DNA from: Streptomyces sp. NPDC092296
GTDB lineage: Bacteria; Actinomycetota; Actinomycetes; Streptomycetales; Streptomycetaceae
Length of the DNA stretch: 64,000 nt
Reading direction: 5' to 3'
Assembly: GCF_044755465.1 (NCBI RefSeq)
Contig: NZ_JBIVRB010000010.1
Location: forward strand, 27,517 to 91,516
Part shown: piece by piece, positions 2,077-19,501 of the stretch
Layout of the letters: each line of letters opens with the position of its first letter
How positions within the stretch are numbered: the stretch's first letter is position 1
Notes under the pieces: generated by a model
What the model was told of the DNA's origin: nothing
What the model saw: only the letters and a program-made list of their open reading frames with translations
The model's database searches: none
Program-made: the position numbers and the translations under genes

Positions 2077-3027
2077 ATGAAACAGCCCGGTGCCCCGGGA
2101 TCGCCAGCGCTGCTGGCGATCTCCAGCCATCTCCCGGAGACCATCCCGGTCTCCGGGCTCCAGGACCGGTTGGCGCTGAGCGATCAGCAGGTGCGCCGGT
2201 TCACCCGGCTCTACGGCCTGGACCGGATCTGCCAGTCCGCCGCGTCGGAGGTCGACCTGCTGGTCGCCGCCGCCGGCAAGCTGGACGAACTGGCCGGCCG
2301 CGAGGAGGACGTGCGCTACATCGTCCGGGCCAAGGGGTTGCGTACCACCGCGCCCTATCCGCGCAACCCCGTGCAGGAGTTCCGGCAGGTGATGGGCCTC
2401 TCCCGCGCCCGGACCTTCGCGGTGGAGGACCACGGCTGCGCGACGGGGCTGCTCGCCCTGGACGTGGCCGCGACGCTGCTGGCGCAGGACGGCGACCCGG
2501 ACGCCCTGGCGCTGGTGCTCCTCGGGGACAAGACGCTGACCCCGTTCTCCCAGTGGGTGGCCGACGTCTCCATCATGGGCGAGGGCGTCGCCGTGGCCCT
2601 GGTCGCGGCCGGTGGCACCCGGGACCGCATCCTCGGCTACGCGAGCCGGATCCACGGCCGCCCGGACGGTCAGATCGACATGACCCCGGACCTCGCCAAG
2701 CAGGCCCGGAAGATCTACCAGGACGCCTTGGCGGAGGTCGTGCAGGCCGCCTGCGAGCAGGCCGGGATCACCGTGGACGATCTGGACCTCGTGCTGCCGC
2801 ACAACGTCAACCGGGTCTCCTGGACGGTCGCCGGGGACCGGCTCGGCCTGCCGCAGGAGAAGCTCTTCCTGGACAACATCGCCGCCACGGGGCACTGCTT
2901 CTGCGCCGATCCCTTCATCAACCACCGGAGCGCACGAGAGCTGGGCCGGCTCCAGCCGGGCGACCGGTACCTGATGACCTCTGCCGGGCTGGGACAGGCG
3001 TTCGCGGCCATGGTCCTGCAGCACTGA
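2077..3027 (+). CDS. 3-oxoacyl-ACP synthase III (FabH/KASIII)-like protein, possibly an ACP-dependent acyltransferase
   Basis: The 316-aa protein has a nucleophile region EDHGCATGLLALDVA aligning to the FabH Cys motif. Its C-terminal half is FabH-like (PHNVNRVSW..LPQEKLF..ATGHCF), with GHCF where FabH has GNTS. A purine-rich SD (ggaggcggagg) lies upstream. Confidence 0.7.
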   Translation: MKQPGAPGSPALLAISSHLPETIPVSGLQDRLALSDQQVRRFTRLYGLDRICQSAASEVDLLVAAAGKLDELAGREEDVRYIVRAKGLRTTAPYPRNPVQEFRQVMGLSRARTFAVEDHGCATGLLALDVAATLLAQDGDPDALALVLLGDKTLTPFSQWVADVSIMGEGVAVALVAAGGTRDRILGYASRIHGRPDGQIDMTPDLAKQARKIYQDALAEVVQAACEQAGITVDDLDLVLPHNVNRVSWTVAGDRLGLPQEKLFLDNIAATGHCFCADPFINHRSARELGRLQPGDRYLMTSAGLGQAFAAMVLQH

Positions 3028-3041
3028 ACGTAGGAGGGACG

Positions 3042-4448
3042 ATGACCGACACCGTCAGCCGGGCCGCCCGCTTCCCCCGCTTCACCGACCGGCTCAGGAC
3101 CGCGCTGGGCGCCCCAGGGGCACCGCTGGTGCTGCTGGGCAACTTCGAGGTCGAGGAGGCCTGGTCAGCCGAGGAACTCACCCTGCCGCGCTTCTCGGCG
3201 GACTCCGGCGCCGCCGTGGTCAACCGGATGGACGAGTTCACGCTCCTGCTCGCGGGCGAGCAGGACCATGTGGTCCTCAAGTCGGCCCCCGACCCGGCCT
3301 ACCTCGCCTATCTGACCGCCCTGGGGCTTCAGCTGCCGCAGATCCATGCGGTGGCGGAGCACTGCCGCCGACCGGAGCGGACCGTCACCCTCGACGCCCT
3401 CGACGATCCGGAGCTGCTGGAGCGGCTCGGCTCGCTGGGCCGCTCCGGGGCGCGGCTGCTGCCGCACGGTACCTCTGCGGCGGAGAAACGGCTCGCCGAG
3501 CGCGCCGGCCTGCCGCTGGCGACGCCCGGCGCCGAGCTCTGCAAACGCGTCAACAGCAAGATCTACAGCCGCCGGCTGGCCGAGCAGCTGGGCCTGCGGC
3601 TCGCCCCCGGCTGGGCCTGCGAGACCCTCGACGAGCTGGCCCAGGCCTTCGAGCACGCCCGCAAGCTGCTGGGCGAGGGCCGCCGCACCGTGGTCAAGGA
3701 GGCGTTCGGGGTCTCCGGCAAGGGCATCACCATGCTTGACAGCGAACGCCGGATGGACCGGATCCTGACCATGGTCGCCGCCCAGGCACGCCGCTCGGGG
3801 CGCGACCGGATCGCCTTCGTGGTGGAGGAGTGGGTCGAGAACCTCGGCGACCTCAACTACCAGTTCACCGTGGGCAAGGACGGATCGGTCCACTTCGACT
3901 TCGTCAAGCAGGCGCTGACCGAGGGCGGTGTGCACAAGGGCCACCGCTTCCCGGCCCGGCTGACCGACCCGCAGTCGGCCGCGATCGTCGAGGTGGCGAC
4001 CCTGCTCGGCCCGCTGCTGGCCGCCGACGGCTACCACGGAGTGGTGGGCGTGGACGCCCTGCTCACCGCCGACGGGGGCGTCCTGCCCGTGGTCGAGATC
4101 AACGCCCGCAACAACATGTCCACCTATCAGGCCCGCCTCCAGGAGGAGCTGCTGGGGCCGGACCAGGTGGCCCTCGCCCGGCACTACCCGCTGCGCCTCG
4201 ACGCGGAGCTGGGCTTCGACCGGCTCCGCACCGTGCTGGACGGGCTGGTGCTGGACCGGCCGGGCGGCACCGGCCTGCTGGTCAACAACTTCGCGACCGT
4301 CAACGCCGGCCGGGACCTCCGGCCGGGCGAGTCCTTCGACGGCCGCCTGTACGCCATGGTGGTGGCCGGCTCGGCCGCCGAACTGACCGAGATCGACGAG
4401 GGCGTGAGCGCCCGACTCGCGGCGGAAGGAGTAGCCGGTGCCCGCTGA
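3042..4448 (+). CDS. ATP-grasp family carboxylate-amine ligase (BtrJ-like candidate)
   Basis: The 468-aa protein starts at an ATG preceded by GGAGGGAC. It has ATP-grasp signatures: a K..G..G.GI loop (KEAFGVSGKGITM) and an E.N.R motif (VVEINARNNMST). The 2052..4448 ORF in the track is an N-terminally over-extended frame. Confidence 0.7.
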   Translation: MTDTVSRAARFPRFTDRLRTALGAPGAPLVLLGNFEVEEAWSAEELTLPRFSADSGAAVVNRMDEFTLLLAGEQDHVVLKSAPDPAYLAYLTALGLQLPQIHAVAEHCRRPERTVTLDALDDPELLERLGSLGRSGARLLPHGTSAAEKRLAERAGLPLATPGAELCKRVNSKIYSRRLAEQLGLRLAPGWACETLDELAQAFEHARKLLGEGRRTVVKEAFGVSGKGITMLDSERRMDRILTMVAAQARRSGRDRIAFVVEEWVENLGDLNYQFTVGKDGSVHFDFVKQALTEGGVHKGHRFPARLTDPQSAAIVEVATLLGPLLAADGYHGVVGVDALLTADGGVLPVVEINARNNMSTYQARLQEELLGPDQVALARHYPLRLDAELGFDRLRTVLDGLVLDRPGGTGLLVNNFATVNAGRDLRPGESFDGRLYAMVVAGSAAELTEIDEGVSARLAAEGVAGAR

Positions 4449-5739
4449 ATTCGAGGTCCAGGGCCTCGTGATCACCGATATCGCCGAGGAGTTCGGCACC
4501 CCGCTGTACCTCTACGACGGCGAGGCCCTGCGGGACCGGGTCAGCTCGCTCCGCGCGCTGCTCCATCCCCGGCTGGAGATCTTCTACTCGCTCAAGGCCA
4601 ATCCCAACGTCTCGGTCTGCGCGCTGCTCCACACGTTCGGCGCCAACGCCGAGATCTCCTCGCTGGTCGAGCTGCGCACCGCGCGGGCGGCCGGGGTGGC
4701 GCCGGAGGACATCCTCTTCCTGGGCCCCGGCAAGAGCGTCGAGGAGTTGGAAGCCTGCCTGGACGAGGGCGTCTTCGCGATCGTCTGCGAGTCCTTCGGC
4801 GAACTGGCCCTCATCGACGAGCTGGCCGCCCGGCGGGGGATCGTCGCCCGGGTCGCGCTGCGGGTCAACCCCGAGTTCGCGGTGAAGGGGTCGGGACTGA
4901 CCATGGGCGGCAAGCCACGGCAGTTCGGCATCGACGAGGCCCAGTTGCTGGCCGCGTCCGACCTGGCCGACCGCCACCGGCACGTCCGGCTGGTGGGCAT
5001 CCAGACCTATATGGGAACCAGAATCCTCGCCGCCGGTGCGGTGGTGGAGAACACCGAGCGGATTCTCGCGCTGGCGGAGCGCGTCTCGACCCGGCTGGGC
5101 TTCCCGCTGGAGCTGGTGGACGTCGGCGGCGGCCTGGGCGTGGCGTACTTCGAGGGGGAGGAGGACCTGGACCCGGCCGAACTGGCCACCGGGATCAACC
5201 CGTTGATCGCGGCGTTCGCGGACCGGCACCCCGGGGTCCGGCTGGTGATGGAGCTCGGCCGCTACCTGACGGCGGAGGCGGGCACCTATGTCACCCGGGT
5301 GCGCTATGTGAAGGAGTCCATGGGCCAGCGGTTCGCGGTGGCCGACGGCGGCACCAACCACCACATGGCGGCCGTGGGCATCGGCTCCTTCATCAAGCGC
5401 AACTTCCCGCTGGCCGTGCTCAACCGGCTGGACGAGCCGCCGACCGAGCTGTGGAACATCACCGGTCCGCTGTGCACCCCCAGCGACACCCTGGGCAAGC
5501 GGGCGCTGCTCCCGCCGCTCCGGGCCGGCGACCTGATCGGCGTGGGGCGCTCGGGCGCCTACGGGCCCAGCGCCTCGCCGGTCCTCTTCCTCAGCCACGG
5601 CCACCCGGCGGAGGTCCTGGTCTGGCGGGGCCGCGCCCACCTGGTCCGCCGACGGGACCGGGCGGAGGACCTGCTGGACCGGCAGCAGCTCGCCGACCTC
5701 GGTGAGCCGGCCGACCTCACCGCGAGCCCGGCCGGCTGA
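4438..5739 (+). CDS. PLP-dependent decarboxylase, fold type III (Orn/DAP/Arg decarboxylase family; BtrK-like candidate)
   Basis: The 433-aa protein carries the FYSLKANPN PLP-Lys motif and an overall diaminopimelate-decarboxylase-like architecture. The GTG start overlaps the upstream stop by 11 nt. Confidence 0.85.
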   Translation: MPAEFEVQGLVITDIAEEFGTPLYLYDGEALRDRVSSLRALLHPRLEIFYSLKANPNVSVCALLHTFGANAEISSLVELRTARAAGVAPEDILFLGPGKSVEELEACLDEGVFAIVCESFGELALIDELAARRGIVARVALRVNPEFAVKGSGLTMGGKPRQFGIDEAQLLAASDLADRHRHVRLVGIQTYMGTRILAAGAVVENTERILALAERVSTRLGFPLELVDVGGGLGVAYFEGEEDLDPAELATGINPLIAAFADRHPGVRLVMELGRYLTAEAGTYVTRVRYVKESMGQRFAVADGGTNHHMAAVGIGSFIKRNFPLAVLNRLDEPPTELWNITGPLCTPSDTLGKRALLPPLRAGDLIGVGRSGAYGPSASPVLFLSHGHPAEVLVWRGRAHLVRRRDRAEDLLDRQQLADLGEPADLTASPAG

Positions 5740-5821
5740 CCGGCGCCGTCCCCACCGGCGAGGCACCGAGCCGGCGCCGCCGCACACACCCGCACACCCA
5801 CCGAGAACCGGAGACACCGCC

Positions 5822-6097
5822 ATGACCGAGACCAGCACCCACACCCCCGACCGCGCCGAGGTGATCGGCGTCATCGGCCGCTCCCTCGTCGTCGTCCTCG
5901 GCGACGGACTGCCCGCCCTCACCGAGGAGTCCCGCCTCTTCGACCAGGTCGGCCTGGACTCCAACGGCGTCTTCGAGCTGCTGATGGAGCTGGAGGAAGC
6001 CCTCGGCATCGAGCTGGACACCGACAACCTGGAGATGCGGCACTTCGAGAGCCTCGGCTCCCTGGCGGACTTCCTGCTCGCGGAGATGAGCAGCTGA
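5822..6097 (+). CDS. Stand-alone acyl/peptidyl carrier protein
   Basis: The 91-aa protein MTETSTHTPDRAEVIGV... has a phosphopantetheine-site motif (GLDSNGVFELLMELEE). The track ORF 5702..6097 is over-extended; ATG at 5822. Confidence 0.75.
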   Translation: MTETSTHTPDRAEVIGVIGRSLVVVLGDGLPALTEESRLFDQVGLDSNGVFELLMELEEALGIELDTDNLEMRHFESLGSLADFLLAEMSS

Positions 6098-6099
6098 CG

Positions 6100-6966
6100 A
6101 TGTATCAGGCAACCGCACCGCTGCTGACGCCGTCCGGGACCGACACACAGCACTCCGCACCGCTGCGCCTGGCGCGGGTCGTCCACCGCGCGTTCGGCCC
6201 GGGTGAGTCCCGCATCGACGACGAGTTCTCCACCCGGCACTTCACCGACATCGCCGGGGCCTACGGCCGGGACTACCGGCCGGACCTCGCCCCGGGGGGT
6301 ACGGGCAACACCTTCGCGACGATGTCCCGTGAACTGGTGGAGGCCCTGGGCCCCGACGCCGCCGAGATCCAGGTGGCCGTGGTCGGCCATGTGACCCCGG
6401 ACCTGGACTGCCGATCGGCCGCGACCACCTACCTCTCCGACGCGTGGCCGGCCGGGCCGCTCGCCTTCGGCGTCTCCGAGCAGGGCTGCTGCACCCCGCT
6501 CACCGCACTCCGGCTGGCCCAGGCGTACGCCGCGCGGCACGGACTGGAGCGGGCCCTGGTCCTCCTGCTGGACCAGGCGACGCTGCCGTACGAGACGGGG
6601 CGGCGGCTCGCCGGTGACGCGGGCATCGCGCTGCTGCTCAACCGGACCGGGACGCTCGCCGTGCCCGAGCCGAGGGTGCTCCCCGGCGTCGCCGCCGAGC
6701 GGGTCCGCGACACGCTGGCCGAGCAACTGGCGGACATCGGTCCCACCACCCTGCTGGTCGGGCCGGGCATCGACCCGGACCGCGACCTGCCCGCCGGGTC
6801 GGCGGCGCACCGCTCCGCCACGGGCTTCCCGGCCGTCGGCCTCTGGGCCGACCTCGCGGCCTCGGCGGAACTGCCGCTGCGCCGCCCGGCGGCTCTGATC
6901 GACCGGGACCCGGACAGCGGGGACCTGGCGATCTGCCTGCTCCGGCCGACGCCGGACTCGGCGTGA
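6100..6966 (+). CDS. Truncated KASIII/thiolase-fold protein (N-terminal half with nucleophile Cys), function unknown
   Basis: The 288-aa protein aligns by eye to the FabH N-terminal domain (VAVVGHVTPDLDCRSAATTYL.. and SEQGCCTPLTALRLAQAYA, versus FabH ..STPD..PSTA.. and NAACSGF..AL..A). No C-terminal thiolase half is present. It starts 2 nt after the ACP stop. Confidence 0.5.
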   Translation: MYQATAPLLTPSGTDTQHSAPLRLARVVHRAFGPGESRIDDEFSTRHFTDIAGAYGRDYRPDLAPGGTGNTFATMSRELVEALGPDAAEIQVAVVGHVTPDLDCRSAATTYLSDAWPAGPLAFGVSEQGCCTPLTALRLAQAYAARHGLERALVLLLDQATLPYETGRRLAGDAGIALLLNRTGTLAVPEPRVLPGVAAERVRDTLAEQLADIGPTTLLVGPGIDPDRDLPAGSAAHRSATGFPAVGLWADLAASAELPLRRPAALIDRDPDSGDLAICLLRPTPDSA

Positions 6967-7604
6967 ACGGCCCGGACCTCTGGTCCCGGGTCCACACCGC
7001 GGCCCGCGAGGAGGGACTGGCCCCCGCGTTGGCCCTGCTCTGCGCGCCGCAGGGCCCGGCCGGCCCGCCGTACGGACCACGCGGCCATGCGGTGCTGCCC
7101 GGCACGGACGTCGCTCCGCTGCCCGACGGCGCCACGGTGCTGGACACGGTGCCGCTGCCCGGCGGGTCGGTGACACTGCTGCGCCTGCGTGACGGGGCAG
7201 CGGACCCGCCGCCACCCGCGCCGGAGGGGTTCACCCAGGGGCTGGCCTGGCTGCGGCTCGGCCTCTCGCAGTGGCTCTGCCGGCAGGTGATGGCCTACCT
7301 CGCGACCCGCAACGTCGGCGGCGCCCCGCTGCTGCGGCAGCAGCTCGTCAAGGGCGCGATCGCGGACACCGTCGGGGAGCACCTGGAGCTGCGGGAGACC
7401 CTGGAGGCCGCAGGCGCCGACCCGCTGGACGCGGGCACGCTGGGCGACCTGCACCGCCAGCTCACCGTCACCGACCGGGCCCAGGTTCGCTTGCTGGGCG
7501 CCCGTGGCTACCTGGCCGAAGGGCCCGGACACGCCGCCTACCTCTCGGAGCTGCTGGCGGAGGCGTATCTGAACGAGACCGGTCCGAGCGGGCGGGTCGA
7601 CTGA
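6963..7604 (+). CDS. Hypothetical protein resembling the C-terminal 4-helix domain of acyl-CoA dehydrogenases
   Basis: The 213-aa protein starts at a GTG in a GTGA overlap with the upstream stop. The segment RLGLSQWL..AYLATRNVGGAPLLRQQLVKGAIADTVGEHLELRETL resembles the ACAD C-terminal region (R.G.A..A..Y...R..FG.P....Q.VQ..LADM..E.EAAR). Confidence 0.4.
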   Translation: MNGPDLWSRVHTAAREEGLAPALALLCAPQGPAGPPYGPRGHAVLPGTDVAPLPDGATVLDTVPLPGGSVTLLRLRDGAADPPPPAPEGFTQGLAWLRLGLSQWLCRQVMAYLATRNVGGAPLLRQQLVKGAIADTVGEHLELRETLEAAGADPLDAGTLGDLHRQLTVTDRAQVRLLGARGYLAEGPGHAAYLSELLAEAYLNETGPSGRVD

Positions 7605-7857: not shown

Positions 7858-8622
7858 ATGGAGGTACAGATACTCGGTTCGCTGGCGGTGCAGTCGGGGG
7901 ATCAGCTGTACCGGCTGCCCTCCAAACGCGTACGCACCGTCCTCGCCCTGCTCGCCCTGACGCCCGGCGAGCCGGTGGGCGTCGACCACCTCATCGACCA
8001 ACTCTGGCCGGACCGGCGGATGGGGAACTCCCGCAACGCCCTCCAGGCCAACATCGGCCGACTGCGCCGGTTCCTGGAGTCGATCACGGACAGCGGCACC
8101 GGCCGGGTGGTCCGCACCCTCAGCGAGAGCTATGTGCTGGAGCTGCCGCCAGAGGCGGTGGACTCCCATCTCTTCCTCTCCCTGGCCGAACGCGGCGCGA
8201 TGGAGGTCGGCACCAGCCACGAGGAGGCCATAGCCCTGCTGGAACAGGCGCTGCGCCTGTGGCGCGGCCCGGCACTCTTCGACCTCTACGACAGCCCCCG
8301 GCTCCAGCTGGAGGCCCACCACCTCGACGAGCAGCGGCTGAGCGTCCGGGAGGACCTGATCGCCGCCAAGCTGGCGGTGGGGCGAATCCGCAGCGTCATC
8401 CCCGAGCTGCGCCAGCTCACCCAGCTGCACCCGGGCCGGGAGCGGTTCAGCGAGCAGCTGATGCAGGCCCTGTACCGCGACGGCCGGCAGACCGAGGCGC
8501 TGGACGTCTTCCACCGCACCCGCAGCTGGCTGGTGCGGGAACTGGGCCTGGAGCCCGGCCATCGGCTCTCCGGCGTCTACCACTCGATCCTGACGCACGA
8601 CCCGGTCCTGGACCGGCAGTGA
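7858..8622 (+). CDS. SARP-family transcriptional activator (OmpR-type wHTH plus BTAD domain)
   Basis: The 254-aa protein MEVQILGSLAV...RVRTVLALLAL...VDHLIDQLWPD...LELPPEAVDSHLF.. matches AfsR/DnrI/RedD-type small SARPs by eye. It sits between two biosynthetic operons. Confidence 0.85.
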   Translation: MEVQILGSLAVQSGDQLYRLPSKRVRTVLALLALTPGEPVGVDHLIDQLWPDRRMGNSRNALQANIGRLRRFLESITDSGTGRVVRTLSESYVLELPPEAVDSHLFLSLAERGAMEVGTSHEEAIALLEQALRLWRGPALFDLYDSPRLQLEAHHLDEQRLSVREDLIAAKLAVGRIRSVIPELRQLTQLHPGRERFSEQLMQALYRDGRQTEALDVFHRTRSWLVRELGLEPGHRLSGVYHSILTHDPVLDRQ

Positions 8623-8710: not shown

Positions 8711-9865
8711 TCAGGTGAGCTTGCCGCTGGCGAAGCCCTGGTAGACGTTGAGACGCTGCATCGCGCTGGTCCCCTCGATGAACTCCAGCGACCGCGCGTC
8801 CCGGGCCAGCTTGTCCAACAGCGGATGGTCGAGCCGCGCACCCGGCCCGAAGAGACCGCACGCCGCCAGGGTGGCATCCTCCGCCAGCGCGCTCGCCCGC
8901 AGTTTGGCCGCGGAGGCGAGCGGCCCGCCGTCGGGGCCGCCCGCGTCCACCGCGGCGGCGGCCCGGTGGACCAGCCGCCGGGTGGCGTCGACCCGCCGCT
9001 CCAACTGCTCCAGCCGGTCGTGCTCGCCCGTGCGGAGCGGGCCGCGATGGGCGCGGACGTACTCCAGCGCGGCGCGGGCCATGCCCACGCCGATCGCCGC
9101 CACCCCCGGCCGCAGCCGGTTGAAGGTCTGGATGAAGGCCCAGGTGCCACGGCGGCTCGGCGGGAGGTGGCGGCCGAGCAGCCGCTCCTCGGGGATCTCC
9201 ACGCCGTCCAGCTCCACCGCGCTGATACACGCTCCGCGCAGCCCGATGGTCGGCAGGACCTCGGCCCGGTAGCCCGGCACCGCCGTCTCGGTGAGCACCG
9301 CGACCACGCCCAGCGGCCCCGGCCGGTTGCGGGCGAAGACCACGCCGAGCTGCGCTCGGGCCGCGTTGCCGACGAAGCGCTTGGCCCCGGTCAGCAGCGC
9401 CCCGCCGTCACCGGCGGGACGCAGGGCGGTCCGCATGGCGCTGGCGTCCGAGCCGTTGTCGGGCTCGGTGAGCGCGAAGAAGGTCCACAGGGGCTCGGCG
9501 AGCATCCGCCCGTAGAACCACTCCTTCTGCTGCTTGTCCGCCAGCAGCCCCACCAGGACGCCGGCCAGCAGCGGCCCCGGGGAGGCGACCAGGACACCGG
9601 CGTCGGCGCAGGACAGCTCCTCCATGATGACCGCGCGTTCCACGGCCCGGGTGCCGTGGAAGCGGTGCCCGGCGATCGGCTCGGGGTCGTTCCCGTACTC
9701 CGCCGGGATGCCCATGGTGGCGAGGTAGCGGACGGCGGGCAGGTCGAACCAGCCGCGCACCGCCGCGGGGTCGCGGTCCAGCTCCAGCGCTCGGGCGCGG
9801 AAGTCCCGCCCCCACTCCCGGAACTGCCCGCGCAGCGCGGTCAGGGGTCCGTCGAGTTCCGGCAC
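8711..9865 (-). CDS. Acyl-CoA dehydrogenase family flavoprotein (possibly ACP-substrate dehydrogenase/oxygenase)
   Basis: The true start is probably GTG at 9865 (SD GAGGAGGA upstream), giving about 385 aa VPELDGPLTALRGQFREW... with the ACAD middle and C-terminal domains (..FALTEPDNGSDA.., ..RLEFIEGTSAMQRL..). The track's 433-aa version has an Arg-rich, over-extended N-terminus. Confidence 0.75.
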   Translation of the reverse strand: MPELDGPLTALRGQFREWGRDFRARALELDRDPAAVRGWFDLPAVRYLATMGIPAEYGNDPEPIAGHRFHGTRAVERAVIMEELSCADAGVLVASPGPLLAGVLVGLLADKQQKEWFYGRMLAEPLWTFFALTEPDNGSDASAMRTALRPAGDGGALLTGAKRFVGNAARAQLGVVFARNRPGPLGVVAVLTETAVPGYRAEVLPTIGLRGACISAVELDGVEIPEERLLGRHLPPSRRGTWAFIQTFNRLRPGVAAIGVGMARAALEYVRAHRGPLRTGEHDRLEQLERRVDATRRLVHRAAAAVDAGGPDGGPLASAAKLRASALAEDATLAACGLFGPGARLDHPLLDKLARDARSLEFIEGTSAMQRLNVYQGFASGKLT

Positions 9866-9879
9866 GTCTCCTCCTCGGT

Positions 9880-10587
9880 TCAGCCGCAGCCGCCGGCGTG
9901 TCCCTCTTCGGAGGAGGGGCCGACGGAGCCGGGGCCGGACGGTACGGGCAGTGACTCCGCGCCGGGTGTCTGCGCGCGCAGATGCGCGACGAAGTCCGGC
10001 AGGCGGTCCCACCCCCAGAAGCGGTTGAACCCCTGAACGAAGAAGGGCACCCCGAAGACCCCGTCCCGGCAGAGATCGAGCAGCAGCCCGGCGCCCTGCT
10101 CGCGCAGGTCCGGGTCGGTCGCGGCCCCGGCGGTCTCCTCGGGGTCGAGGCCGAGTTCGGCCCCGAGCTCACCGACCACCGCCGGATCGCAGATGTTGCG
10201 GCCCTCCTCCCAGCGGGCCCGGTAGGCGGCGGCCACGAACTCCCGGCCCAGACCCTCCCTGCGGGCGACCAGGTAGGCGAGGTGCGGAACCTCCCAGACC
10301 GGCTCCCGGTCGACGGGCCACACCACCCGCCGGCCCAGCCGCTCCGCGAGCCGGCCGACGTCCTGGAGGATGTAGAGGTGCTTGGCACGCGACATCGGCA
10401 CATAGGGGAAGGCGCCCCCCAGCTCGATGAGCCGGGCGGCACTCTTCTCGTCCGGCTCCCAGAAGGGCCGCCACTCCACCTGCTCCGCGACATCGGGGTG
10501 GTGCTCCAGCAACTCCCGGTGCGCCAGCCAGGAGTAGGGACTGCGCAGCGAGAAGTAGTAGCGCGGCTGCCTCGGCTTCCTGCCCAT
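9880..10587 (-). CDS. DsbA-like thioredoxin-fold protein of the 2-hydroxychromene-2-carboxylate isomerase family
   Basis: The 235-aa protein has an N-terminus RYYFSLRSPYSWLA typical of HCCA-isomerase/DsbA-like proteins. Its ATG overlaps the fabG stop (ATGA). Confidence 0.7.
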   Translation of the reverse strand: MGRKPRQPRYYFSLRSPYSWLAHRELLEHHPDVAEQVEWRPFWEPDEKSAARLIELGGAFPYVPMSRAKHLYILQDVGRLAERLGRRVVWPVDREPVWEVPHLAYLVARREGLGREFVAAAYRARWEEGRNICDPAVVGELGAELGLDPEETAGAATDPDLREQGAGLLLDLCRDGVFGVPFFVQGFNRFWGWDRLPDFVAHLRAQTPGAESLPVPSGPGSVGPSSEEGHAGGCG

Positions 10588-11336
10588 CAGAGCACCAACC
10601 CGCCATCCACGCCGAAGACCTGGCCGGTGATGTAGGAGGCGCGGTCGGAGGCGAGGAAGGACACCAGGTCCGCGACCTCCTCGGGCCGTCCGAAGCGGCC
10701 GAGGGGAATCCGCTCGGTCATCCTGCCGACGTGGTCCGGCGACAGGGAGGCGGTCATGTCGGTGTCGATGAAGCCGGGCGCCACCACATTGGCCCGGATG
10801 CCCCGTGGGCCGACCTCCTTGGCCAGCGCTTTGGTGAAGCCGATGATCCCCGCCTTGGAGGCCGAGTAGTTCGACTGGGTGGCGTGCCCGTGGACGCCGG
10901 CGATCGAGGACATCGTGATCAGCGCCCCGGTGCGGCGCTTCATCATCGCGAACACCGCCGAGCGGCAGACGTGGTAGGTCCCGTCGAGGTTGGTGCGCAG
11001 CACCGCCGACCAGTCCGCCTCCGGCAGCAGGACCAGCGGATTGTCGCGCACCAGCCCGGCGTTGGGGACCGCCACGTGCACCGGCCCGAGCTCCCGCTCG
11101 GTCCGCTTGACGAAGGCGTCCACCTCGGCGGCCTGCGCCACGTCCACCCGGCAGGCGAGCACCGAGGCTCCGAAGGCCGCGAACTCCTTCGCGGCGGCCT
11201 CCGCGGCCGCTTCGTCCGCCCGGTAGCAGAAGGCGATGTCATAGCCGTCCTGTGCGAGTCGGGCCGCCACACTGCGCCCTATCCCGCGTGATCCGCCCGT
11301 GATGAGTGCGACCGGGCGCTCTCCCTGGGATGCCAT
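10587..11336 (-). CDS. fabG: 3-oxoacyl-ACP reductase (SDR, FabG-like)
   Basis: The 249-aa protein [24 protein letters not shown]... has the NAG motif, YSASKAG catalytic tetrad residues and a C-terminal GQVFGVDGG. Its ATG overlaps the upstream stop (ATGA). Confidence 0.9.
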
Positions 11337-11866
11337 CAGTTCTCCTCTCCTTGCCCGACCGACGCGCCCGAGGCACCGTACGCATCGTCCGGCCCGTCGC
11401 CGCGCAGCGTCTCCGCCGGGCGCAGCGCTATGGTCATCTCGTCGATCTCCAGCAGCAGCCGGCCCTCGCAGCGGGTCTCGCCGGTCAGGATCGCGGTGCC
11501 ACCCAGGTCGCGGAGGAGCCGGACCTCGTGCTCCACCAGCTGCCCCGGCCAGGCCGCGCCGCTCACCCGGACCCCCTTCAGGCCGGCCAGCAGTGCGACC
11601 GTGCCGGTGAGCACATCCGGGTTGGGCCGCTCCCAGCAGACCAGCAGCACCGCCGCCTGAGCCCAGGACTCCAGCAGCCAGCCCGTCGGGTAGGCATGGC
11701 GGCCGGGGGCCGCGTCCTCCTCGATGCCCGCGTAGCAGGGCTCCGCCGCGCTGACCGCCTTGCGTGCGCGCAGCCGCGTGCCCGGTTCCACCTCGACCAC
11801 CTGGTCCACCAGCAGGACCGGGTGGCGGTGCGGCACCACCCGCCGGATCTCGGCGACGCCGATCAC
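11336..11866 (-). CDS. FabZ-like hotdog-fold 3-hydroxyacyl-ACP dehydratase (subunit 2)
   Basis: The 176-aa protein starts at GTG with SD GGGGGAGGG. It contains [19 protein letters not shown] (FabZ-like LPHRxPFLLVDRV), with [17 protein letters not shown] in place of the QGHFPG..PGVL region. Confidence 0.7.
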
Positions 11867-12363
11867 GGGCCCTCCCCCGAAGAAACAACGCCCGAAGAAA
11901 CAACGCCCGAAGAAACAACGCCCGGAGAGACGACGCCCGGACAGGCGCTGGGCGGAGAGAGGCTGGGCGGATAGACGATGCGCAGCTTCGCCACCGGTCC
12001 GTGCGGGCCGTCGAGTCGGACGGCGGCCCGGGTGCCGCCCTCGGTCTCCTCGACCACGGCCTCCAGCCGGAGCCGCTCCTGCGGACGCACCGGCGCCAGG
12101 AATCTGGCCCGCTCCAGCAGCAGCGGCTGCTCCGGCTCCCGCCCGAGCGACCGGCACAGCAGGGTGTGCACCCGCTGGACCATGAAGAGTCCTGGGACCA
12201 GGGCGAACCCGGGGTAGTGACCGGCCTGGACGGCATCGTCCGGCCCCACCGCTCCGGCGCCGCGCAGGACCGTCCGGCCGTCGGTCTCCGCCGGCTCCAG
12301 CCGGTCCAGCGGCGGCACCGGTACGGCGGCCCGCTGCCCCGCGTCAGCCGGCCAGGACCGCAC
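11863..12363 (-). CDS. FabZ/FabA-like hotdog dehydratase (subunit 1) with C-terminal (GVVSS)n repeat tail
   Basis: The 166-aa protein contains [18 protein letters not shown], the FabZ QGHFPG.P..PGVL catalytic motif. Its stop overlaps the downstream GTG (GTGA). The C-terminal [25 protein letters not shown] tail is encoded by 15-bp tandem repeats. The start is uncertain (GTG at 12363 or downstream). Confidence 0.6.
11878..11945 (-). repeat. 15-bp tandem repeat (gaagaaacaacgccc x3 plus a variant) within the 3' end of the hotdog dehydratase gene
   Basis: Direct reading shows gaagaaacaacgccc gaagaaacaacgccc gaagaaacaacgccc ggagagacgacgccc. The repeat is in frame and encodes GVVSS repeats on the minus strand. 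Confidence 0.85.
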
Positions 12364-13456
12364 AGCCGACCATCCCGTCGCGGTCGATGCCGGTCACCAG
12401 CGCCACCTCACCGGGGGCCAGGACCCCCTGGTCGGCGGCGGCGAGCACGGCGGCCACCTGGACGGCCGTGGAGGCGGCCGAGGTGTCGCCGAGCAGGTCG
12501 CGGCAGTCCAGTACCCGGGACGGCGCGGCTCCCAGCGCGGCGGCCACGGCCGCCGTCTCCGTCTCCGCGTCCAGCGGGGCGAGCAGCCGGACGCGGTCCG
12601 CCGCGACACCGGCCCGGTCGAGGGCCGAGCGTACGCACTCCGTCAGCGCCTGCGCCGCCCCGCCCGGCCGGTGGTGGGCGCGGAACCGCACGCCGAGCAG
12701 GCGCGCCGAGGGCCTGCGGCCGGTCGTCGGCGTCGTCTCCTCGGCCTCCAGGAGGGCGACCGCCGCGGCTTCGCCGAGCACCCGGGGTTCCGCCGCCGCG
12801 GCCTCCTCCAGCCGGTGGCGCCGCACCGAGTACTCCTCGGCCGCTCCGCAGATCACCTGCTCGCAGTGGCCGCCCCGGTAGAGCCGGGAGGCGTACCCGA
12901 GGACGTGCAGACCGGTCAGGCTGCCCCCGGCCACGGTGCTGTTCGGTCCCTTGATGCCGTGCCAGATCGCGCTCTGGCCGGCGGCGCGGTTCATCACCGT
13001 GTTGGGAAAGCGGGCCGGGTCCACGTGGTAGGGCTTCTCCCCGGTCAGCGCGGACTCGGTGAAGTCCATGATGCTCTGGACGCTGCCGTGGCCGGTCCCC
13101 AGCACCAGCCCGACCCGCTCCGGCCGAACCAGCAGCTGCGGACCGCAGTCGGTGAGCAGCCGGTCCACCGCCGTCACCGCCAGCGCGGTGACCCGGTCCA
13201 TGGTGCGGGTGCCCTTGCGGCCGAGCGCTTCGGCGGCGCTGAAGCCCGGCACCACCCCACCGCGCCCCGGGACGCCGGGGAGCGGCCCCGGGCCCAGCTC
13301 CGCCAGGGCGCTGCGGCCCGCCAGCACGCCGGCGCCGAAGGCCGCGCCGCCCACGCCGTACGGGGTGACGGCGGACCAGGCGGTGAGCACCAGCCGGGCC
13401 GTCGCACGCCCCTCGGCGCCGCCGACCGGCGGCGCCGAGGGGGCCGCCGCCGTCAC
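12344..13456 (-). CDS. Ketosynthase-like protein lacking the active-site Cys (KS-beta / chain-length-factor-like)
   Basis: The 370-aa protein has a KS N-terminus ([15 protein letters not shown]). The GP....TACSSSL position reads [14 protein letters not shown], so no Cys is present. It starts at GTG in a GTGA overlap with the upstream thioesterase stop. Confidence 0.8.
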
Positions 13457-14414
13457 CGGTTGCCCCGGCCGGTGATCCGCCCGGCCTTCCCGTGCAGGGC
13501 GTCGGTCAGGCGGTCGTCGAAGTCGACCAGGCTCCAGTCACGGCGGTTGCCGATGACGGCCCAGCCGTGGGTGATCTTCCCGGTCGCCGTCTGCACCAGC
13601 CTGCCGTCGCGTACGACGTAGCAGTCCATCCGCGCGGTGTAGGTGTACCGCTTGAAGACGTTCTCCACGGTGAAGACGGTGTGGACGGTCTCCTCCATGC
13701 GCGCCTCGTCGAGGATCTCGATCCGCGAGTGCGGGACGACCGGTATCCAGTCCTGCTCGTCGAGCAGCGTCTTGATGGAGACGCCCCGGTCCTGGAGGAA
13801 GAGGTCCACGACCTCCTCCATCAGGCGCAGATAGCCCGACATCTGCACCCGCTCGGTGAAGTGGCAGTAGAAGTACGGCATCCGCCAGGACCAGCCGAAG
13901 GCGTTCTGGCCCTCGACCAGCTGCGCGAGCGGGTCGGCACCGGTCACCTCGGCCGACTCCGCCTGCTCGTCGGTCCCCAGCCGGTCGACCACATAGGGCG
14001 CCAGCTGCGCCGGCGGCTGCTCGGCCGCGTGGCCCCGGGGGTCGAGCCGCAGCTGCACGGTGGCCTTGGAGACCACGGCCCTGATCCGCTCGCCATCGCG
14101 GTCCACGGTCAGCTCCACGGCGAACCGCAGCTCGTCGCCCGGCACCCGCCGGACGGTGGCGGAGGCGACGTCATCGATGTGGAAGGCGGTCAGGATCTTG
14201 GTGTCGATCCGGGTGATGTCGGTGCCGATGCCGAACCGCTCGTAGAGCGCGCCGGCCGGATGGCCCTGCTGGCGCAGGTGGTCGTAGATCGCCTCTTCGA
14301 CCATGTAGTTGACGTGCTTGAACCCGATCCAGGTGCAGATGTTCGAGCCTTCGTAGCGGGGGCGGAGTTCCGTCGTGGTGATCGGTTCCGCTGCGGTGAC
14401 GGTGCTCTGGCTCA

Positions 14415-14415
<1 letters not shown>
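13453..14415 (-). CDS. Tandem hotdog-fold thioesterase-like protein (4HBT-like double hotdog)
   Basis: The 320-aa protein has two hotdog-like halves (ICTWIGFKHVNYMVEEAIYDHL and MPYFYCHFTERVQMSGYLRLMEEV). Its ATG is in an ATGA overlap with the hydrolase stop. Confidence 0.6.
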
Positions 14416-15283
<868 letters not shown>

Positions 15284-15287
<4 letters not shown>

Positions 15288-16543
15288 CGTTCCGGCTCGT
15301 AGCGGCCGAGGATCAGCACCGCGTTGTTGCCCGCGAAGGCCAGGGCGTTGTTCTGCACGATGCGGACATCGGCCTGGCGCGCCTGGTTGGGCACCGGGTC
15401 GATACCGCACTCCTCGTCCGTCGTCCGGTGGTTGATGGTCGGCGGGATGAACCCCTCCGTGATGGCCAGCGCGCACGCGGCCGAGGCCAGCGCACTGGCC
15501 GCGCCCATGGTGTGCCCGAGCATTCCCTTCACCGAGACGGTCGGCGGCGCGTCGCTGAAGACCTGCCGGATCGCCCCGGCCTCAGTGACGTCATTGGCCT
15601 TGGTCCCGGTGCCGTGCGCGGAGATGAAGTCGATCTGCTCCGGCTTCACCCCGGCGTTGCGGTGGGCGAGCTCCATGCAGCGGGCGAGGCTGTCCCGGTC
15701 CGGTGCGACCGGATGGCTGGCGTCGCAGTTCAGGCCGTAGCCCAGCACCTCCGCGTAGATGCGGGCGCCGCGCCGCCGGGCGGACTCCAGGCTCTCCAGC
15801 AGCAGGATGCCGCCGCCTTCACCGGTGAGGATGCCCTTCCGGTCGCTGTCGAACGGGCGGCAGACATCCGGTGCGATGGTCCCCAGCCGGTAGAAGCCGG
15901 TGAAGGTCTTCCGGCAGACCGCGTCGGCGCCGCCGCACAGCGCCATGTCGACCTCACCCGCCCGGATGGCGTCGTAGCCCGACCCGATGGCGTAGTTGCC
16001 GGCCGCGCAGGCGGTCGGGATGGTGACGGCCTCCGCGTCGACCAGTTCGAGTTCGCGCACGATGCCGCTGGAGAGTGCGCCGGCCGAGGCCCGGCGCGCC
16101 ACCCGCCCGTCGACGGGCTCCCCGGCGAGCTGCCGCGCCACCAGCTCGTCCAGGTCCCTGGACTCCCCGTCGGTGGTGCCGACGGAGACCAGCACCGCGC
16201 GGCTGCGCAGCTCGTCCAGGCCCAGCCCCGCGTCGTCGACGGCCATGCGGGCCGCCGCGACCGAGAACTGGCTCGCCCGGCCGAGCTCCTCCGGGTCCAG
16301 CACCTCGATCCACCGCGACGGATCGAAGTCGTCGATCTCGCAGCCGTTGGCATGGGCGAATCCGCTGGTGTCGAACGCGGTGATCGGCTTGACCCGGCTG
16401 CGGCCGGAGCGCAGACCCTCCAGGAACTCCGTCACCCCGATGCCGATGCTGGTGACCACCCCGATTCCGGTGACGACCACCCGGTGCGGCCCGTGCCCGC
16501 CGCTCACCGTCTGATCCCCGGTGTGATCCACGGTGTGATCCAC
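15284..16543 (-). CDS. Beta-ketoacyl synthase (KS-alpha, FabF/type II PKS KS)
   Basis: The 419-aa protein has the active-site Cys (TACAAGNYAIG) and the His motifs (SAHGTGT, GHTMGAAS). The GTG start follows SD GAGGAAGG. The N-terminus DHTVDHTG is encoded by a 12-bp tandem repeat. Confidence 0.9.
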
Positions 16544-16579: not shown

Positions 16580-16846
16580 CTAATTGGCGGACGCGTCCTC
16601 GACGACGGCCACGACACCCTCCAGATTGACCATGCGGGTGAGCTCGCTCTGGTCGATCTCGACGTTGAAGGTGCGCTCCAAGGAGGAGAGGATCTCGATG
16701 GCCCCGAGGGAGTCGGCGCCGTGGTCCTTGAACAGGCTGGTCCAGGTCACCTCGGCGGGCTCGATCTCCAGGATCTCGCAGACGATCTCCTTGATCTGCG
16801 CGCGCTGCTCGTCGTTCAGCTTCGCGGCGCGATCCGTGGCGGACAT
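16580..16846 (-). CDS. Acyl carrier protein
   Basis: The 88-aa protein contains ..KDHGADSLGAIEILSSLE.., with the DSL phosphopantetheinylation site. It is the first gene of the minus-strand operon. Confidence 0.85.
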   Translation of the reverse strand: MSATDRAAKLNDEQRAQIKEIVCEILEIEPAEVTWTSLFKDHGADSLGAIEILSSLERTFNVEIDQSELTRMVNLEGVVAVVEDASAN

Positions 16847-17175
16847 GTGGCCTCCAGAGAAGAGCAGGTCTGATTACGCCACGATTCTTCGCCGCCGCCC
16901 TGACACAGAGCTGACGCACGACTGACAGTGAGAAACCCGTGGTGGCGCCGCGACCGCTCCGGTCCGTCCGATGCAGACCACCCGGGGCCTCTTGACCTGG
17001 CACCGGACGCGGGATTTGGTTGAGCGGGACGCCGCAAGCCGGACCCGGACCGGCGGCTCCCCTGCGGCCCCCCGACCTGGCGAACCGTCGCGAAGAGAGG
17101 CCCCGTTGGAAGCTTCCGCCTCCCGGCGTTCCGTCCCCGCCGAGCCGCAGCCCGACCGGCCGGACGCCGACGCGC

Positions 17176-17918
17176 TCACCGCCGTGACCCGACGGCTGAC
17201 CGGAGCGCCGCCGCCGGTGACGGCCACCCCTCGGGCGGGCGTGGACCTCTGCCTCCTCGACCTGCGGACGGTCGACGGGACCCGCCTCGACACCTGCGTC
17301 CTGGACGAGGAGGAGCACACCCGCCGACGGAGCCTGCTGCGCAGCGGTGACCGCCGCCGCTTCACGGTGGCTCACATCGCCCTGCGCCGCCTGCTCGCCC
17401 GCCGGATCGGCACGGACGCCCGCTCTCTGGCCTTCACCCGCGAGCCGTGCCCGCTCTGCGCCGGCCCGCACGGCCGTCCTGCGGTGCTGCGGCCGTCGGC
17501 CGAGGTGCACTTCTCCCTCTCCCACGGGGGTGACTTCGTCCTGGTCGGCCTGGCCGACCGGCCGATCGGGGTGGATGTGCAGCCGTTCCCCTCGGGCCTT
17601 CGCCTCAAGGGGATGCTGCGCGCGCTCCACCCGGCCGAGCAGACCGAATTCGCCGCCCTCCCACCGGACGCGGACCCGGCCGCCGCCTTCGCCCGCCTCT
17701 GGTCCCGCAAGGAGGCCTACCTCAAGGCCCTGGGCACCGGACTCGCCCGTGGCCTGTCCACCGACTACCTCGGCACCACCGGCCTTGCCCCCACCCCCCA
17801 GGGCTGGCACATCGCCGACCTCGCACCCGTCTCCTCCCACGCCGCCGCCTACGCCCTCCCCGGCCCCGCACCGGCCGCCCTGCGCATCCGCAGCCTCCCG
17901 GCCGCACTCGTCTACTGA
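17176..17918 (+). CDS. Sfp-type 4'-phosphopantetheinyl transferase
   Basis: The protein carries FSLSHGGDFVLVGLA..GVDVQ and WSRKEAYLKALGTG motifs. The track ORF starts at 16971, and in-frame GTGs near 17176, 17215 and 17239 are more plausible starts, so the start is uncertain. Confidence 0.7.
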
Positions 17919-18055: not shown

Positions 18056-19501
18056 GTGTTCGATCAGGATGGCCGAAGCCCCGCCGCAGCAGTGATGCCT
18101 ACGGCCGGCGGGGTCTCAACGCCATCTGTGGGGGTTTTCCTCTTGTCTTCCGTCTTCTCCGTCATACCCGGCCGCCGCTCTGGCGCGGTGGCCGCGCTCG
18201 CCGCCGGGCTCGTCGTGGCCGGCCTGCCGGCCACCGCCGGTGCCACCGGCACGCCGTCCGGGCACGCCTCGGCCGTCGCCGCCGATGTGCAGCTGGACGT
18301 CAACCTGCTCAACAAGGGCATCGACATCCCGGTGAACGTCTCGCTCAACAAGGTCACCGCGCCCGGCCAGAGCGGCGGCACCCTGCTCACCGCCCGGGTC
18401 GACGGCGTCTCGCAGGGCGCCCCGCTGACCCTGGTCAAGGCCGCCGTCGGTGACACCCGGGCCACCGTGGACGCGTCCGGCGCTCGGGCCTCGGTCCGGC
18501 TGGTCGACGCCGACGTCCATGTGCCGGGTCTGCCCTTCACCTCGCTGCTCGGCCTGCGGACGGTCGAGTCCTCGGTCGACTGCCCGGTGCACGGAGCGCC
18601 CACCGCCGCGTCGAACCTGCTGGGTACGGTCACCGTCCTGGGTCGCAAGGTCACGCTCTCCACCGCCGGTGCCACCCAGGTGACGGTGCCCGGGGTCGGC
18701 GAGGTCTCGCTCGAGCTGTCCAAGCGGTCCACCACCTCGACCACCGCCGCCGCGACCGCGCTGGAGCTGACGGTCTCGGTCAACCCGCTCAAGCTGAACG
18801 TCGCGGAGGTCACCGGGCGGGTCACGGTGGCCGCCGCGAGCTGCCAGAAGCCCGGCACCCCCGCCACGCCGCCGCCCACCGGCCACCCGACGCCGTCGCC
18901 GTCCACGTCGACTGCGCCGGGGTCGACCTCGGAGGGCTCCACCGCCGGCTCCACGGCTGGTTCGACCTCCGGTTCCACTGCCGGGTCCACCGCCGGGTCG
19001 ACGGCTGGTTCGACGGCCGGTTCCACCTCCGGTTCCACTGCCGGGTCGACGGCTGGTTCGACGGCCGGGTCCACCGCCGGGTCGACGGCTGGTTCCTCGG
19101 CCGGTTCCACCTCCGGTTCCACTGCCGGTTCGACGGCTGGCTCGACGGCCGGTTCCTCGGCCGGTTCCACCTCCGGTTCGACGGCCGGTTCCTCGGCTGG
19201 TTCCACCGCCGGGTCTTCCGCAGGCTCGACGGCCGGTACGACCTCCGGCTCGTCCGCAGGTGCGACGTCCGGCGCCTCCTCCGGCGGCCCGACCGCAGGC
19301 GGTACGACCGGGGGCCAGCAGACCGGCGGCCAGCAGACCGGCGGTGCGCCGACCGGCCCGCAGTCCAGCGGCGCCGGCCTGGCCGAGACCGGCAGCAGCG
19401 GCACCCCGCTGATGGCCGGCGGCGCCGCCGCGCTGGTCGCGGCGGGCGTCGGCTCGCTGCTGGTGGCCCGCCGCCGCAAGGGCCGCAAGGCCCGGGGCTG
19501 A
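18056..19501 (+). CDS. Secreted cell-wall-anchored protein (LAETG sortase motif) with long (STAG/SSAG)n low-complexity repeat
   Basis: The protein has a signal-like N-terminus (RRSGAVAALAAGLVVAGLPATAGA) and about 130 residues of GSTA repeats. Its C-terminus is LAETG followed by a hydrophobic stretch and RRRKGRKARG. The start is ambiguous (GTG at 18056 or ATG at 18095). Confidence 0.7.
   Translation: MFDQDGRSPAAAVMPTAGGVSTPSVGVFLLSSVFSVIPGRRSGAVAALAAGLVVAGLPATAGATGTPSGHASAVAADVQLDVNLLNKGIDIPVNVSLNKVTAPGQSGGTLLTARVDGVSQGAPLTLVKAAVGDTRATVDASGARASVRLVDADVHVPGLPFTSLLGLRTVESSVDCPVHGAPTAASNLLGTVTVLGRKVTLSTAGATQVTVPGVGEVSLELSKRSTTSTTAAATALELTVSVNPLKLNVAEVTGRVTVAAASCQKPGTPATPPPTGHPTPSPSTSTAPGSTSEGSTAGSTAGSTSGSTAGSTAGSTAGSTAGSTSGSTAGSTAGSTAGSTAGSTAGSSAGSTSGSTAGSTAGSTAGSSAGSTSGSTAGSSAGSTAGSSAGSTAGTTSGSSAGATSGASSGGPTAGGTTGGQQTGGQQTGGAPTGPQSSGAGLAETGSSGTPLMAGGAAALVAAGVGSLLVARRRKGRKARG

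Follow-up and report, generated by a model that had tools for sequence, protein, structure and literature searches.

The window analysed here, a stretch of 64,000 nucleotides with a GC content of 74.7%, carries on its minus strand a 235-codon open reading frame (9880–10587) that is the frame with high third-position GC and whose product, which we call ISO, has a 100% identical counterpart at NCBI from Streptomyces sp. NPDC092296. The gene lies within a minus-strand operon whose order, from position 16846 to 8711, is ACP, KS, hydrolase, 320-aa protein, CLF, DH, DH, KR, ISO and ACAD. The operon opens with a type II PKS ACP (16580–16846) and a KS with Cys179, HGTGT and GHTMG (15284–16543), which is 75–83% identical across related loci; these are followed by an alpha/beta-hydrolase whose likely GTG start overlaps the KS stop (14415–15287), a 320-aa hotdog/4HBT_2-like protein (13453–14415) and a KS-like CLF that has neither the active-site Cys nor HGTGT (12344–13456). 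Next come a FabA/ApeI-like DH whose start codon is uncertain (11863–12363), a FabZ-like DH (11336–11866) and a KR of the FabG-type SDR family (10587–11336), and an acyl-CoA-dehydrogenase-family flavoprotein (ACAD, 8711–9865) ends the operon after ISO. Since the catalytic triad of the KS is intact and that of the CLF is missing, the operon itself can supply a polyene substrate. A phosphopantetheinyl transferase gene (16971–17918, plus strand) diverges from the ACP gene, an arrangement that is also found in S. venezuelae. The initial annotation had described the ISO gene as translationally coupled between fabG and the ACAD gene; this holds on the fabG side, where the ISO ATG (10585–10587) overlaps the TGA (10587–10589) of the upstream SDR/FabG gene as ATGA, but not on the ACAD side, where the ACAD GTG at 9865 lies 14 nt downstream of ISO with no overlap and the spacer holds GAGGAGGAG.

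Several lines of evidence agree on the fold of ISO. Pfam PF01323 (DSBA-like) matches its residues 11–203 with E=1.7e-17, and 3fz5, described as a "possible HCCA isomerase", is the PDB entry closest to it in sequence (6e-13; profile, 7e-17), with the NahD HCCA isomerase 2imd, kappa-GST and FrnE as further matches. In an AlphaFold model the core pLDDT exceeds 90, and with this model Foldseek recovers the same structures as the PDB sequence search. ISO therefore has the HCCA-isomerase/GST-kappa family fold (IPR014440 / PF01323), and its initial assignment as an HCCA-isomerase-like protein with a thioredoxin fold is confirmed; an NCBIfam search with ISO gave no match. More than 1400 homologues were found. 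S16 of ISO stands where DsbA has its CxxC, and its aligned counterparts are the Ser of human GST kappa "LSPYSW" and that of NahD "LSPFSY"; S16, P17, S19 and W20 are invariant in an alignment of 139 sequences. Across the same 139 homologues Ser16, the FGVP cis-Pro loop and a GxDR motif are invariant or nearly so; the last of these aligns with GSDR of human GST kappa, although the Ser of GSDR, which in GSTK1 presumably contacts the gamma-Glu of glutathione, is replaced by W, L or V in the ISO family. Comparison with GSTK1 (1yzx, 3rpn) gives an aligned Ser16 ("LSPYSW" against "RSPYSW" of ISO), the same cis-Pro loop and the Asp-Arg of GSDR/GxDR, and the differences are the hydrophobic residue in place of the GSDR Ser and the fact that GSTK1 is a tail-less, eukaryotic detoxification enzyme.

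The structure prediction and active-site comparison that the initial annotation had called for accordingly yield an HCCA-isomerase fold with a Ser where DsbA has its CxxC, and the two features that would have spoken for a periplasmic disulfide oxidoreductase were not found. No CxxC occurs in ISO, S16-P-Y-S19 taking its place, and the polar N-terminus has no hydrophobic signal peptide; none is to be expected, because strand beta-1 already begins at residue 9. ISO is a cytosolic DsbA-like protein, and with neither CxxC nor signal peptide its identification as a periplasmic DsbA was dropped. A cytosolic thiol-disulfide oxidoreductase of the DsbA/FrnE type, in which Cys133 and Cys234 would form a redox pair that might, for example, protect or regenerate PKS thiols, is highly improbable in our judgement. 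The DsbA-like fold and the conservation of the two cysteines (C234 invariant and Cys133 conserved in at least 90% of the 139 sequences) agree with such a function, and a cysteine in a C-terminal tail is also found in the DsbA-like FrnE of Deinococcus; SPYS rather than CxxC at the thioredoxin-fold active site and the lack of a signal peptide argue against it, as does the fact that both the sequence and the fold of ISO are nearest to the Ser-type HCCA isomerase and GST kappa and not to CxxC enzymes. FrnE of Deinococcus radiodurans (5cnw, 5cp1), whose flexible, Cys-bearing tail works with its active site, resembles ISO in being cytosolic, DsbA-like and tailed, but it keeps the CxxC, is a disulfide oxidoreductase and has the tail motif Cx4C rather than GGCG-COOH.

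ISO is not simply NahD in another host. NahD is a tail-less protein of about 200 aa that uses free glutathione and acts on a free-acid substrate in naphthalene catabolism. With NahD (2imd) and 3fz5 ISO shares the fold, the N-terminal F-x-F-x-SP-[YF]-S-[YW] in which Ser replaces CxxC, and FGVP and GxDR; it is only about 23% identical to NahD, however, carries a 30-aa tail that ends in GGCG, and is encoded in a PKS operon. In place of the aromatic-catabolism operon and free glutathione of NahD-type enzymes we find a PKS/NRPS cluster in a Streptomyces host. NahD orthology was considered and dropped on account of this PKS/NRPS context and the low identity.

A different group of relatives fits much better. 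HCCA-isomerase/GST-kappa-type isomerases are listed as universal core enzymes of highly reducing type II PKSs, the systems behind the cinnamoyl groups of non-ribosomal peptides and behind related polyenes, and their named members are Sky27, Cal27, Kcn15/Kcn33, Atr16, Cip20, YsfG, GlaV and Cbm22; they are proposed to convert an all-trans C8 triene-ACP into the (2E,4Z,6E) isomer, thereby enabling elongation and 6-pi ring closure (PMC12532209, PMC6510318, PMC9381841). The isomerase role was proposed for Sky27, and the isomerase gene has served as a genome-mining probe since 2019 (PMC6510318); PMC9381841 states, citing Deng et al. 2021, that elongation of the chain depends on the isomerase. The products of characterised clusters contain Z double bonds, among them colibrimycin, with a Z-containing C8 triene made with Cbm22 (PMC12532209). 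Two motifs, PRxYFSLRSPYSW (residues ~6–18) and FGVPxF (residues ~176–181), set the actinobacterial isomerases apart from NahD-like proteins (PMC12532209), and both are present in ISO. The first is PRYYFSLRSPYSW at residues 8–20 (10528–10566, minus strand) and the second FGVPFF at residues 178–183 (10039–10056, minus strand), the equivalent of FGLP, the cis-Pro loop of GST kappa. ISO also resembles Sky27, Cal27, Kcn15, Atr16, Cip20, YsfG, GlaV and Cbm22 in its HCCA-isomerase/GST-kappa fold, in its size (~233–237 aa; GlaV, 233 aa), in the position of its gene directly after that of the KR, and in having an NRPS nearby. Look-ups of cluster members gave no link from ISO to any of the isomerases named in the literature. 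Compared by motifs and gene order, ISO nevertheless appears to belong to the polyene/cinnamoyl isomerase family, as it agrees with that family in every sequence and context test that we ran.

The operon tells a similar story, with exceptions. The canonical order of these clusters (PMC9381841 Table S4) begins with ACP Sky16, KS1 Sky17, KS2 Sky18 and CLF2 Sky19, continues with the alpha/beta-hydrolase Sky20, a protein of unknown function of ~336 aa (Sky21/YsfF), CLF1 Sky22 and ACP Sky23, and ends with two DHs, KR Sky26 and ISO Sky27. When the window's operon is set against the skyllamycin, atratumycin, cinnapeptin and gla clusters, its order equals Sky16, 17, 20, 21, 22, 24, 25, 26, 27, with the hydrolase at the Sky20/GlaH position, the 320-aa protein at the Sky21/YsfF/GlaI position and the KR at the Sky26 position; relative to skyllamycin the operon lacks KS2, CLF2 and the second ACP, and it has the ACAD gene in addition. 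A second KS/CLF pair (KS2-CLF2) was sought in the operon, but only one KS and one CLF were found. Small GlaN/O/P-like proteins of 108–134 aa are present in the gla and cinnapeptin clusters (PMC9381841 Table S4), where we take the trio to be the cyclase, and no such trio was seen in the window's cluster, in which the hydrolase and the Sky21-like protein are present; in complete cinnamoyl-forming clusters the cyclase is a three-protein complex (Kcn17-19 / Gac11-13). The cluster is not a complete cinnamoyl-forming (CCNP) one, since KS2/CLF2 is missing, and without a second KS/CLF pair and a GlaN/O/P-like trio the cluster may not make a cinnamoyl ring. It departs from the clusters of the named polyene isomerases in having a single KS/CLF pair, a single PKS ACP and an ACAD gene after ISO, in lacking the GlaN/O/P-like trio, in carrying a KASIII-like gene and a BtrJ/K/I-like cassette of the Glu-to-GABA-ACP type, and in using a SARP regulator in place of LuxR regulators. 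The initial annotation had held that type II FAS/PKS operons do not as a standard include a gene of this kind, which is true of the canonical systems only; it is a hallmark of the polyene subclass.

The genes that are peculiar to this cluster lie on the far side of the ACAD gene, on the plus strand. They comprise a KASIII-like gene (2077–3027) that is co-conserved in 21 loci, a pre-ATP-grasp/ATP-grasp ligase gene at a BtrJ-like position (3042–4448), a BtrK-like PLP-dependent decarboxylase gene (4438–5739), a second carrier protein gene at a BtrI-like position (5822–6097), two co-conserved genes of unknown function (6100–7604) and a gene for a SARP-family regulator (7858–8622). The top PDB match of the decarboxylase is BtrK, the L-glutamyl-[BtrI ACP] decarboxylase, which acts in butirosin biosynthesis, with E=2.5e-91 as against 1e-53 for DAP decarboxylases. 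The 288-aa product of the first co-conserved gene has a faint KASIII-like match, and the 213-aa product of the second a faint match to an ACAD C-terminal domain. The only other contig with a BtrK-like gene begins 294 bp before the window. At the window's edge lies the 5' part of an NRPS gene (1–1855, minus strand), which encodes a condensation domain first (HHLLCDG) and then the start of an A domain before running off the window; an NRPS next to the polyene operon is a feature of CCNP clusters, seen here in a gene that the window edge cuts. Cobalamin-biosynthesis and unrelated genes occupy the window from ~23.5 kb onward, so that the cluster should extend from before position 1 to ~21 kb. A search for literature linking BtrJ/K/I-like genes to type II PKSs returned nothing relevant, and the cluster, a trimmed skyllamycin-type polyene cassette joined to a butirosin-like Glu-to-GABA-ACP cassette and an NRPS, looks uncharacterised.

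This amino-acyl cassette raises the question of whether ISO might catalyse something other than a double-bond flip, namely an HCCA-isomerase-type ring opening or closing or a hetero-Michael cyclisation that would, for example, close a GABA-primed polyene into an N- or O-heterocycle. NahD, its closest characterised relative, converts a chromene hemiketal into an open trans-enone and back, and the BtrJ/K/I-like amino-acyl-ACP cassette that is peculiar to this cluster would provide an internal nucleophile. We regard this reading as quite unlikely, because the same ISO motifs and gene order are found in many clusters that have no Btr-like cassette, and the amino cassette is therefore not required for ISO function.

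Comparative genomics shows how firmly ISO is tied to the polyene genes themselves. A scan of one genome per species gave 431 loci that encode an ISO relative, and neighbourhoods were counted in 81 loci, consisting of the best 80 of the 431 plus the window's own region in another assembly (L001). A KR adjoins ISO in 80 of the 81, and KS/CLF genes are present in 76; an ACAD gene is found after ISO or elsewhere in the cluster in 17 loci. The nine-gene cassette is syntenic in Streptomyces, Kitasatospora, Saccharothrix, Actinosynnema, Umezawaea, Kutzneria and Actinomadura. Three architectures were distinguished. The first (A), to which the window's cluster belongs, combines the KASIII-like gene with the Btr-like cassette, usually together with the ACAD gene, and is found in ~20 loci; two of these, L004 and L010, keep the order and have the whole set and an NRPS gene on a single strand. 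The second (B) is a short ACP-KS-CLF-KR-ISO-NRPS arrangement with a tryptophan halogenase (L083), and the third (C) is the cassette alone beside anthranilate/tryptophan-type genes, as in S. venezuelae (L082). Two further loci (L042 and L079) have extra genes at the KS2-CLF2 position. Outside the actinobacteria, Porphyromonas macacae (Bacteroidota) has a tail-bearing ISO relative clustered with KS/CLF, KR, DH and hydrolase genes and with a gene for a 305-aa protein at a Sky21-like position.

So tight a co-occurrence of KS, KR and ISO might also be expected of a non-catalytic, gatekeeping partner of the KS/CLF, one that binds the ACP-tethered polyene and permits its elongation or controls chain length; the C-terminal tail, whose bearers occur only in PKS contexts, could then be a docking element. 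We consider such a role unlikely. The Ser16, cis-Pro loop and GxDR elements of the GST-kappa G-site are invariant in ISO, and a pure scaffold needs none of them; in addition, the products of the characterised clusters carry the Z double bonds described above.

ISO is, in our view, probably a cytosolic actinobacterial polyene ("cinnamoyl") isomerase that is accessory to a highly reducing type II PKS and that has a putative role in the E-to-Z flip of polyenoyl-ACP. The gene, its fold, its motifs, its gene order and its conservation were observed directly, and the E-to-Z role comes from the literature on the family. The initial annotation had suggested a candidate double-bond isomerase, an activity by which cis geometry or the precursors of ring closure could be set; exactly this role is given to the family in the literature, and both family motifs are present. 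The annotation was therefore correct but not new, as the gene is a further copy of a known accessory enzyme.

The events at the ACP might then run as follows; what we infer here is the thiol mechanism as well as the substrate and the product of this cluster. The KS/CLF, KR and two DHs would build an all-trans polyenoyl thioester on the ACP, which in characterised systems is a C8 triene, and ISO would flip one of its internal double bonds from E to Z. A thiolate beside Ser16 would add reversibly to the conjugated polyenoyl thioester, the transient single bond would rotate, and the thiol would be eliminated. In this superfamily, of which NahD, GST zeta and the maleylpyruvate isomerases are examples, conjugated C=C bonds are isomerised via reversible thiolate addition, and by analogy with this chemistry thiolate addition, rotation and elimination is most likely the mechanism of ISO, being the best supported one. 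The maleylpyruvate and maleylacetoacetate isomerases, which use GSH, mycothiol or L-Cys, share with ISO this proposed sequence of steps, but their folds are unrelated or distant, their substrates are small and free, and their thiol cofactor is diffusible. The Z geometry would set the next fate of the chain, which in cinnamoyl systems is further elongation or ring closure. With its one KS/CLF pair and no GlaN/O/P-like trio, the window's cluster may go no further than a short polyenoyl chain of Z configuration, comparable to the triene of colibrimycin, and this chain is probably passed to the adjacent NRPS, whose C domain comes first, and/or joined to a GABA-type unit from the BtrJ/K/I-like cassette.

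The source of such a thiol is suggested by the C-terminus of ISO. Beyond the folded domain a linker (residues ~207–226; 9910–9969, minus strand) that is rich in Pro, Gly, Ser and Ala, variable in sequence and length and of low pLDDT leads to the invariant tail EEGHAGGCG-COOH (residues 227–235; 9883–9909, minus strand), which follows the motif D-x-[D/G]-[H/T]-A-G-G-C-G. All 120 of 120 close homologues end in H-A-G-G-C-G-COOH (HVGGCG in one), and the tail is fused to the isomerase domain in 81 of 81 loci. More distantly, the motif stands at the extreme C-terminus of 44 of 150 cluster representatives (clustered at 50% identity), down to ~33% identity. Among the 139 homologues G232, G233, C234 and G235 are as invariant as Ser16, and the spacing from Arg195 to the Cys varies from 26 to 77 residues, with a median of 40. 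AlphaFold gives the tail a pLDDT of below 50 with 19 sequences and of 52–65 with 139 sequences. In a second subgroup (Micromonospora, Amycolatopsis, Nonomuraea and others) 82 of 118 members end in YDTDTAGGCG, and the remaining 36 are tail-less proteins of ~209 aa. In three such genomes, each of a different genus, the shortened isomerase gene is followed by a small ORF that carries the tail and overlaps the isomerase stop by 4 nt; these ORFs encode 68, 41 and 60 aa (L085, L086 and L087) and end in YDTDTAGGCG or YDTDSAGGCG. A tail that forms its own overlapping ORF in three genera must be a separable functional module.

Glutathione itself ends in Cys-Gly-COOH. The initial annotation had called the family glutathione-dependent, which describes the wider family; no glutathione synthesis is known from actinomycetes. 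This circumstance, together with the Cys-Gly end that the tail shares with glutathione, the retention of the G-site elements and the hydrophobic replacement of the GSDR Ser, leads us to propose, tentatively, that the tail might be a genetically encoded glutathione surrogate, either tethered or present as a separate 41–68-aa peptide, that gives the catalytic thiolate at the Ser16 site. The terminal Cys-Gly would swing into the kappa-GST-like site beside Ser16, and its thiolate would drive addition, rotation and elimination on the polyenoyl-ACP. Circumstantial support comes from Porphyromonas macacae, whose tail-bearing relative likewise lies among PKS genes, and from Deinococcus FrnE as an earlier example of a cysteine in the tail of a DsbA-like protein. 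Alternatively, the tail could serve the PKS specifically, for example in docking or in carrying acyl groups. Named tail-less relatives belong to the Proteobacteria and Binatota and lie away from PKS genes, and tail-bearing relatives are found only in PKS contexts; tail-less relatives thus differ in both lineage and context, and fit a glutathione surrogate and a PKS-specific element equally. No mention of a Cys-Gly or C-terminal tail in polyene isomerases turned up in the literature within our reach, which did not extend to the in vitro work of Shi et al. 2022 and of Deng et al. 2021, where it may be described.

ISO is thus the marker of an apparently uncharacterised kind of cluster, conserved in ~20 species-representative genomes, and the composition of the cluster suggests that its product is an undescribed Z-polyenoyl/amino-acyl lipopeptide. 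The family-wide Cys-Gly tail and its mini-gene form provide a concrete hypothesis for the thiol source and mechanism of these isomerases. If the tail is indeed a glutathione surrogate, it would explain how a glutathione-dependent fold functions in lineages from which no glutathione synthesis is known, and it would represent a new kind of tethered or peptide cofactor. The hypothesis also bears on the engineering of cinnamoyl and polyene lipopeptides in heterologous hosts.

The C-terminal tail of the isomerase (the 235-aa polyene isomerase with the HCCA-isomerase/kappa-GST fold), which ends in GGCG-COOH and is encoded at 9883–9909 on the minus strand, is an invariant feature of the family, and the linker that precedes it is variable. 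Some genomes of Actinomadura, Streptosporangium and Micromonospora encode the tail as an overlapping ORF of its own, 41–68 aa long, and these separate ORFs (L085:8627–8833, L086:3627–3752 and L087:3621–3803) end in YDTD[ST]AGGCG. Streptoalloteichus sp. ATCC 53650, the kedarcidin producer, is the recorded source of a 211-aa isomerase homologue that has no tail (P0343).

Isomerase genes lie in clusters of more than one architecture. A locus of Streptomyces venezuelae (L082) has the window-type cassette, in the order ACP-KS-hydrolase-321aa-CLF-DH-DH-KR-isomerase followed by a 369-aa gene; it adjoins TrpC/TrpD/TrpE/TrpG-like and DAHP synthase genes, and the butirosin (Btr)-like cassette discussed below is absent from it. 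A shorter and widespread type, found in Streptomyces subrutilus (L083) and about 40 similar loci, runs SARP, LysR, ACP, KS, CLF, KR, isomerase and then a large NRPS; it has neither the hydrolase nor the Sky21-like (320-aa, hotdog-like) gene, and a tryptophan halogenase and a flavin reductase are encoded close by.

In the window, a butirosin-like Glu-to-GABA-ACP cassette at 3042–6097 on the plus strand is made up of three genes: one for an ATP-grasp ligase, one for a PLP decarboxylase that is BtrK-like (E=2.5e-91 against the L-glutamyl-[BtrI ACP] decarboxylase), and one for a carrier protein. This cassette, the polyene cassette and the KASIII-like gene are co-conserved in about 20 species; our literature search found no link between a butirosin-like Glu-to-GABA-ACP cassette and any type II PKS. 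The two ORFs at 6100–7604 (plus strand; 288 and 213 aa) are likewise co-conserved with the cluster, and the 481-aa ORF at 18056–19501 (plus strand) gave no match among the related loci. Family searches with these three, which lie in or adjoin the cluster, gave nothing convincing; the KASIII-like match of the 288-aa protein is a faint one (E=0.027).

The 221-bp intergenic region between the divergent NRPS and KASIII-like genes contains 3.7 copies of a 15-bp tandem repeat, CAGTCCGCCGCGAGT (1948–2002, 92% matches), which may be a binding array for the SARP regulator. The alpha/beta-hydrolase has an acidic repeat, DSDDSDDSDDS, shortly before its C-terminus (14415–14500, minus strand). To the right of the cluster, a large cobalamin-biosynthesis region at about 23600–46000 (CbiX, CbiG, several tetrapyrrole methylases, CobN, ChlI/VWA chelatase subunits, CobQ/CobB and CobD) appears to be unrelated to it.

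Finally, a Bacteroidota cluster on a Porphyromonas macacae-type metagenome contig (L088) combines three KS/CLF pairs and an isomerase whose tail ends in FDHTGGCG with genes for a KR, DHs, a hydrolase and a 305-aa protein. The system therefore also exists beyond the actinomycetes.
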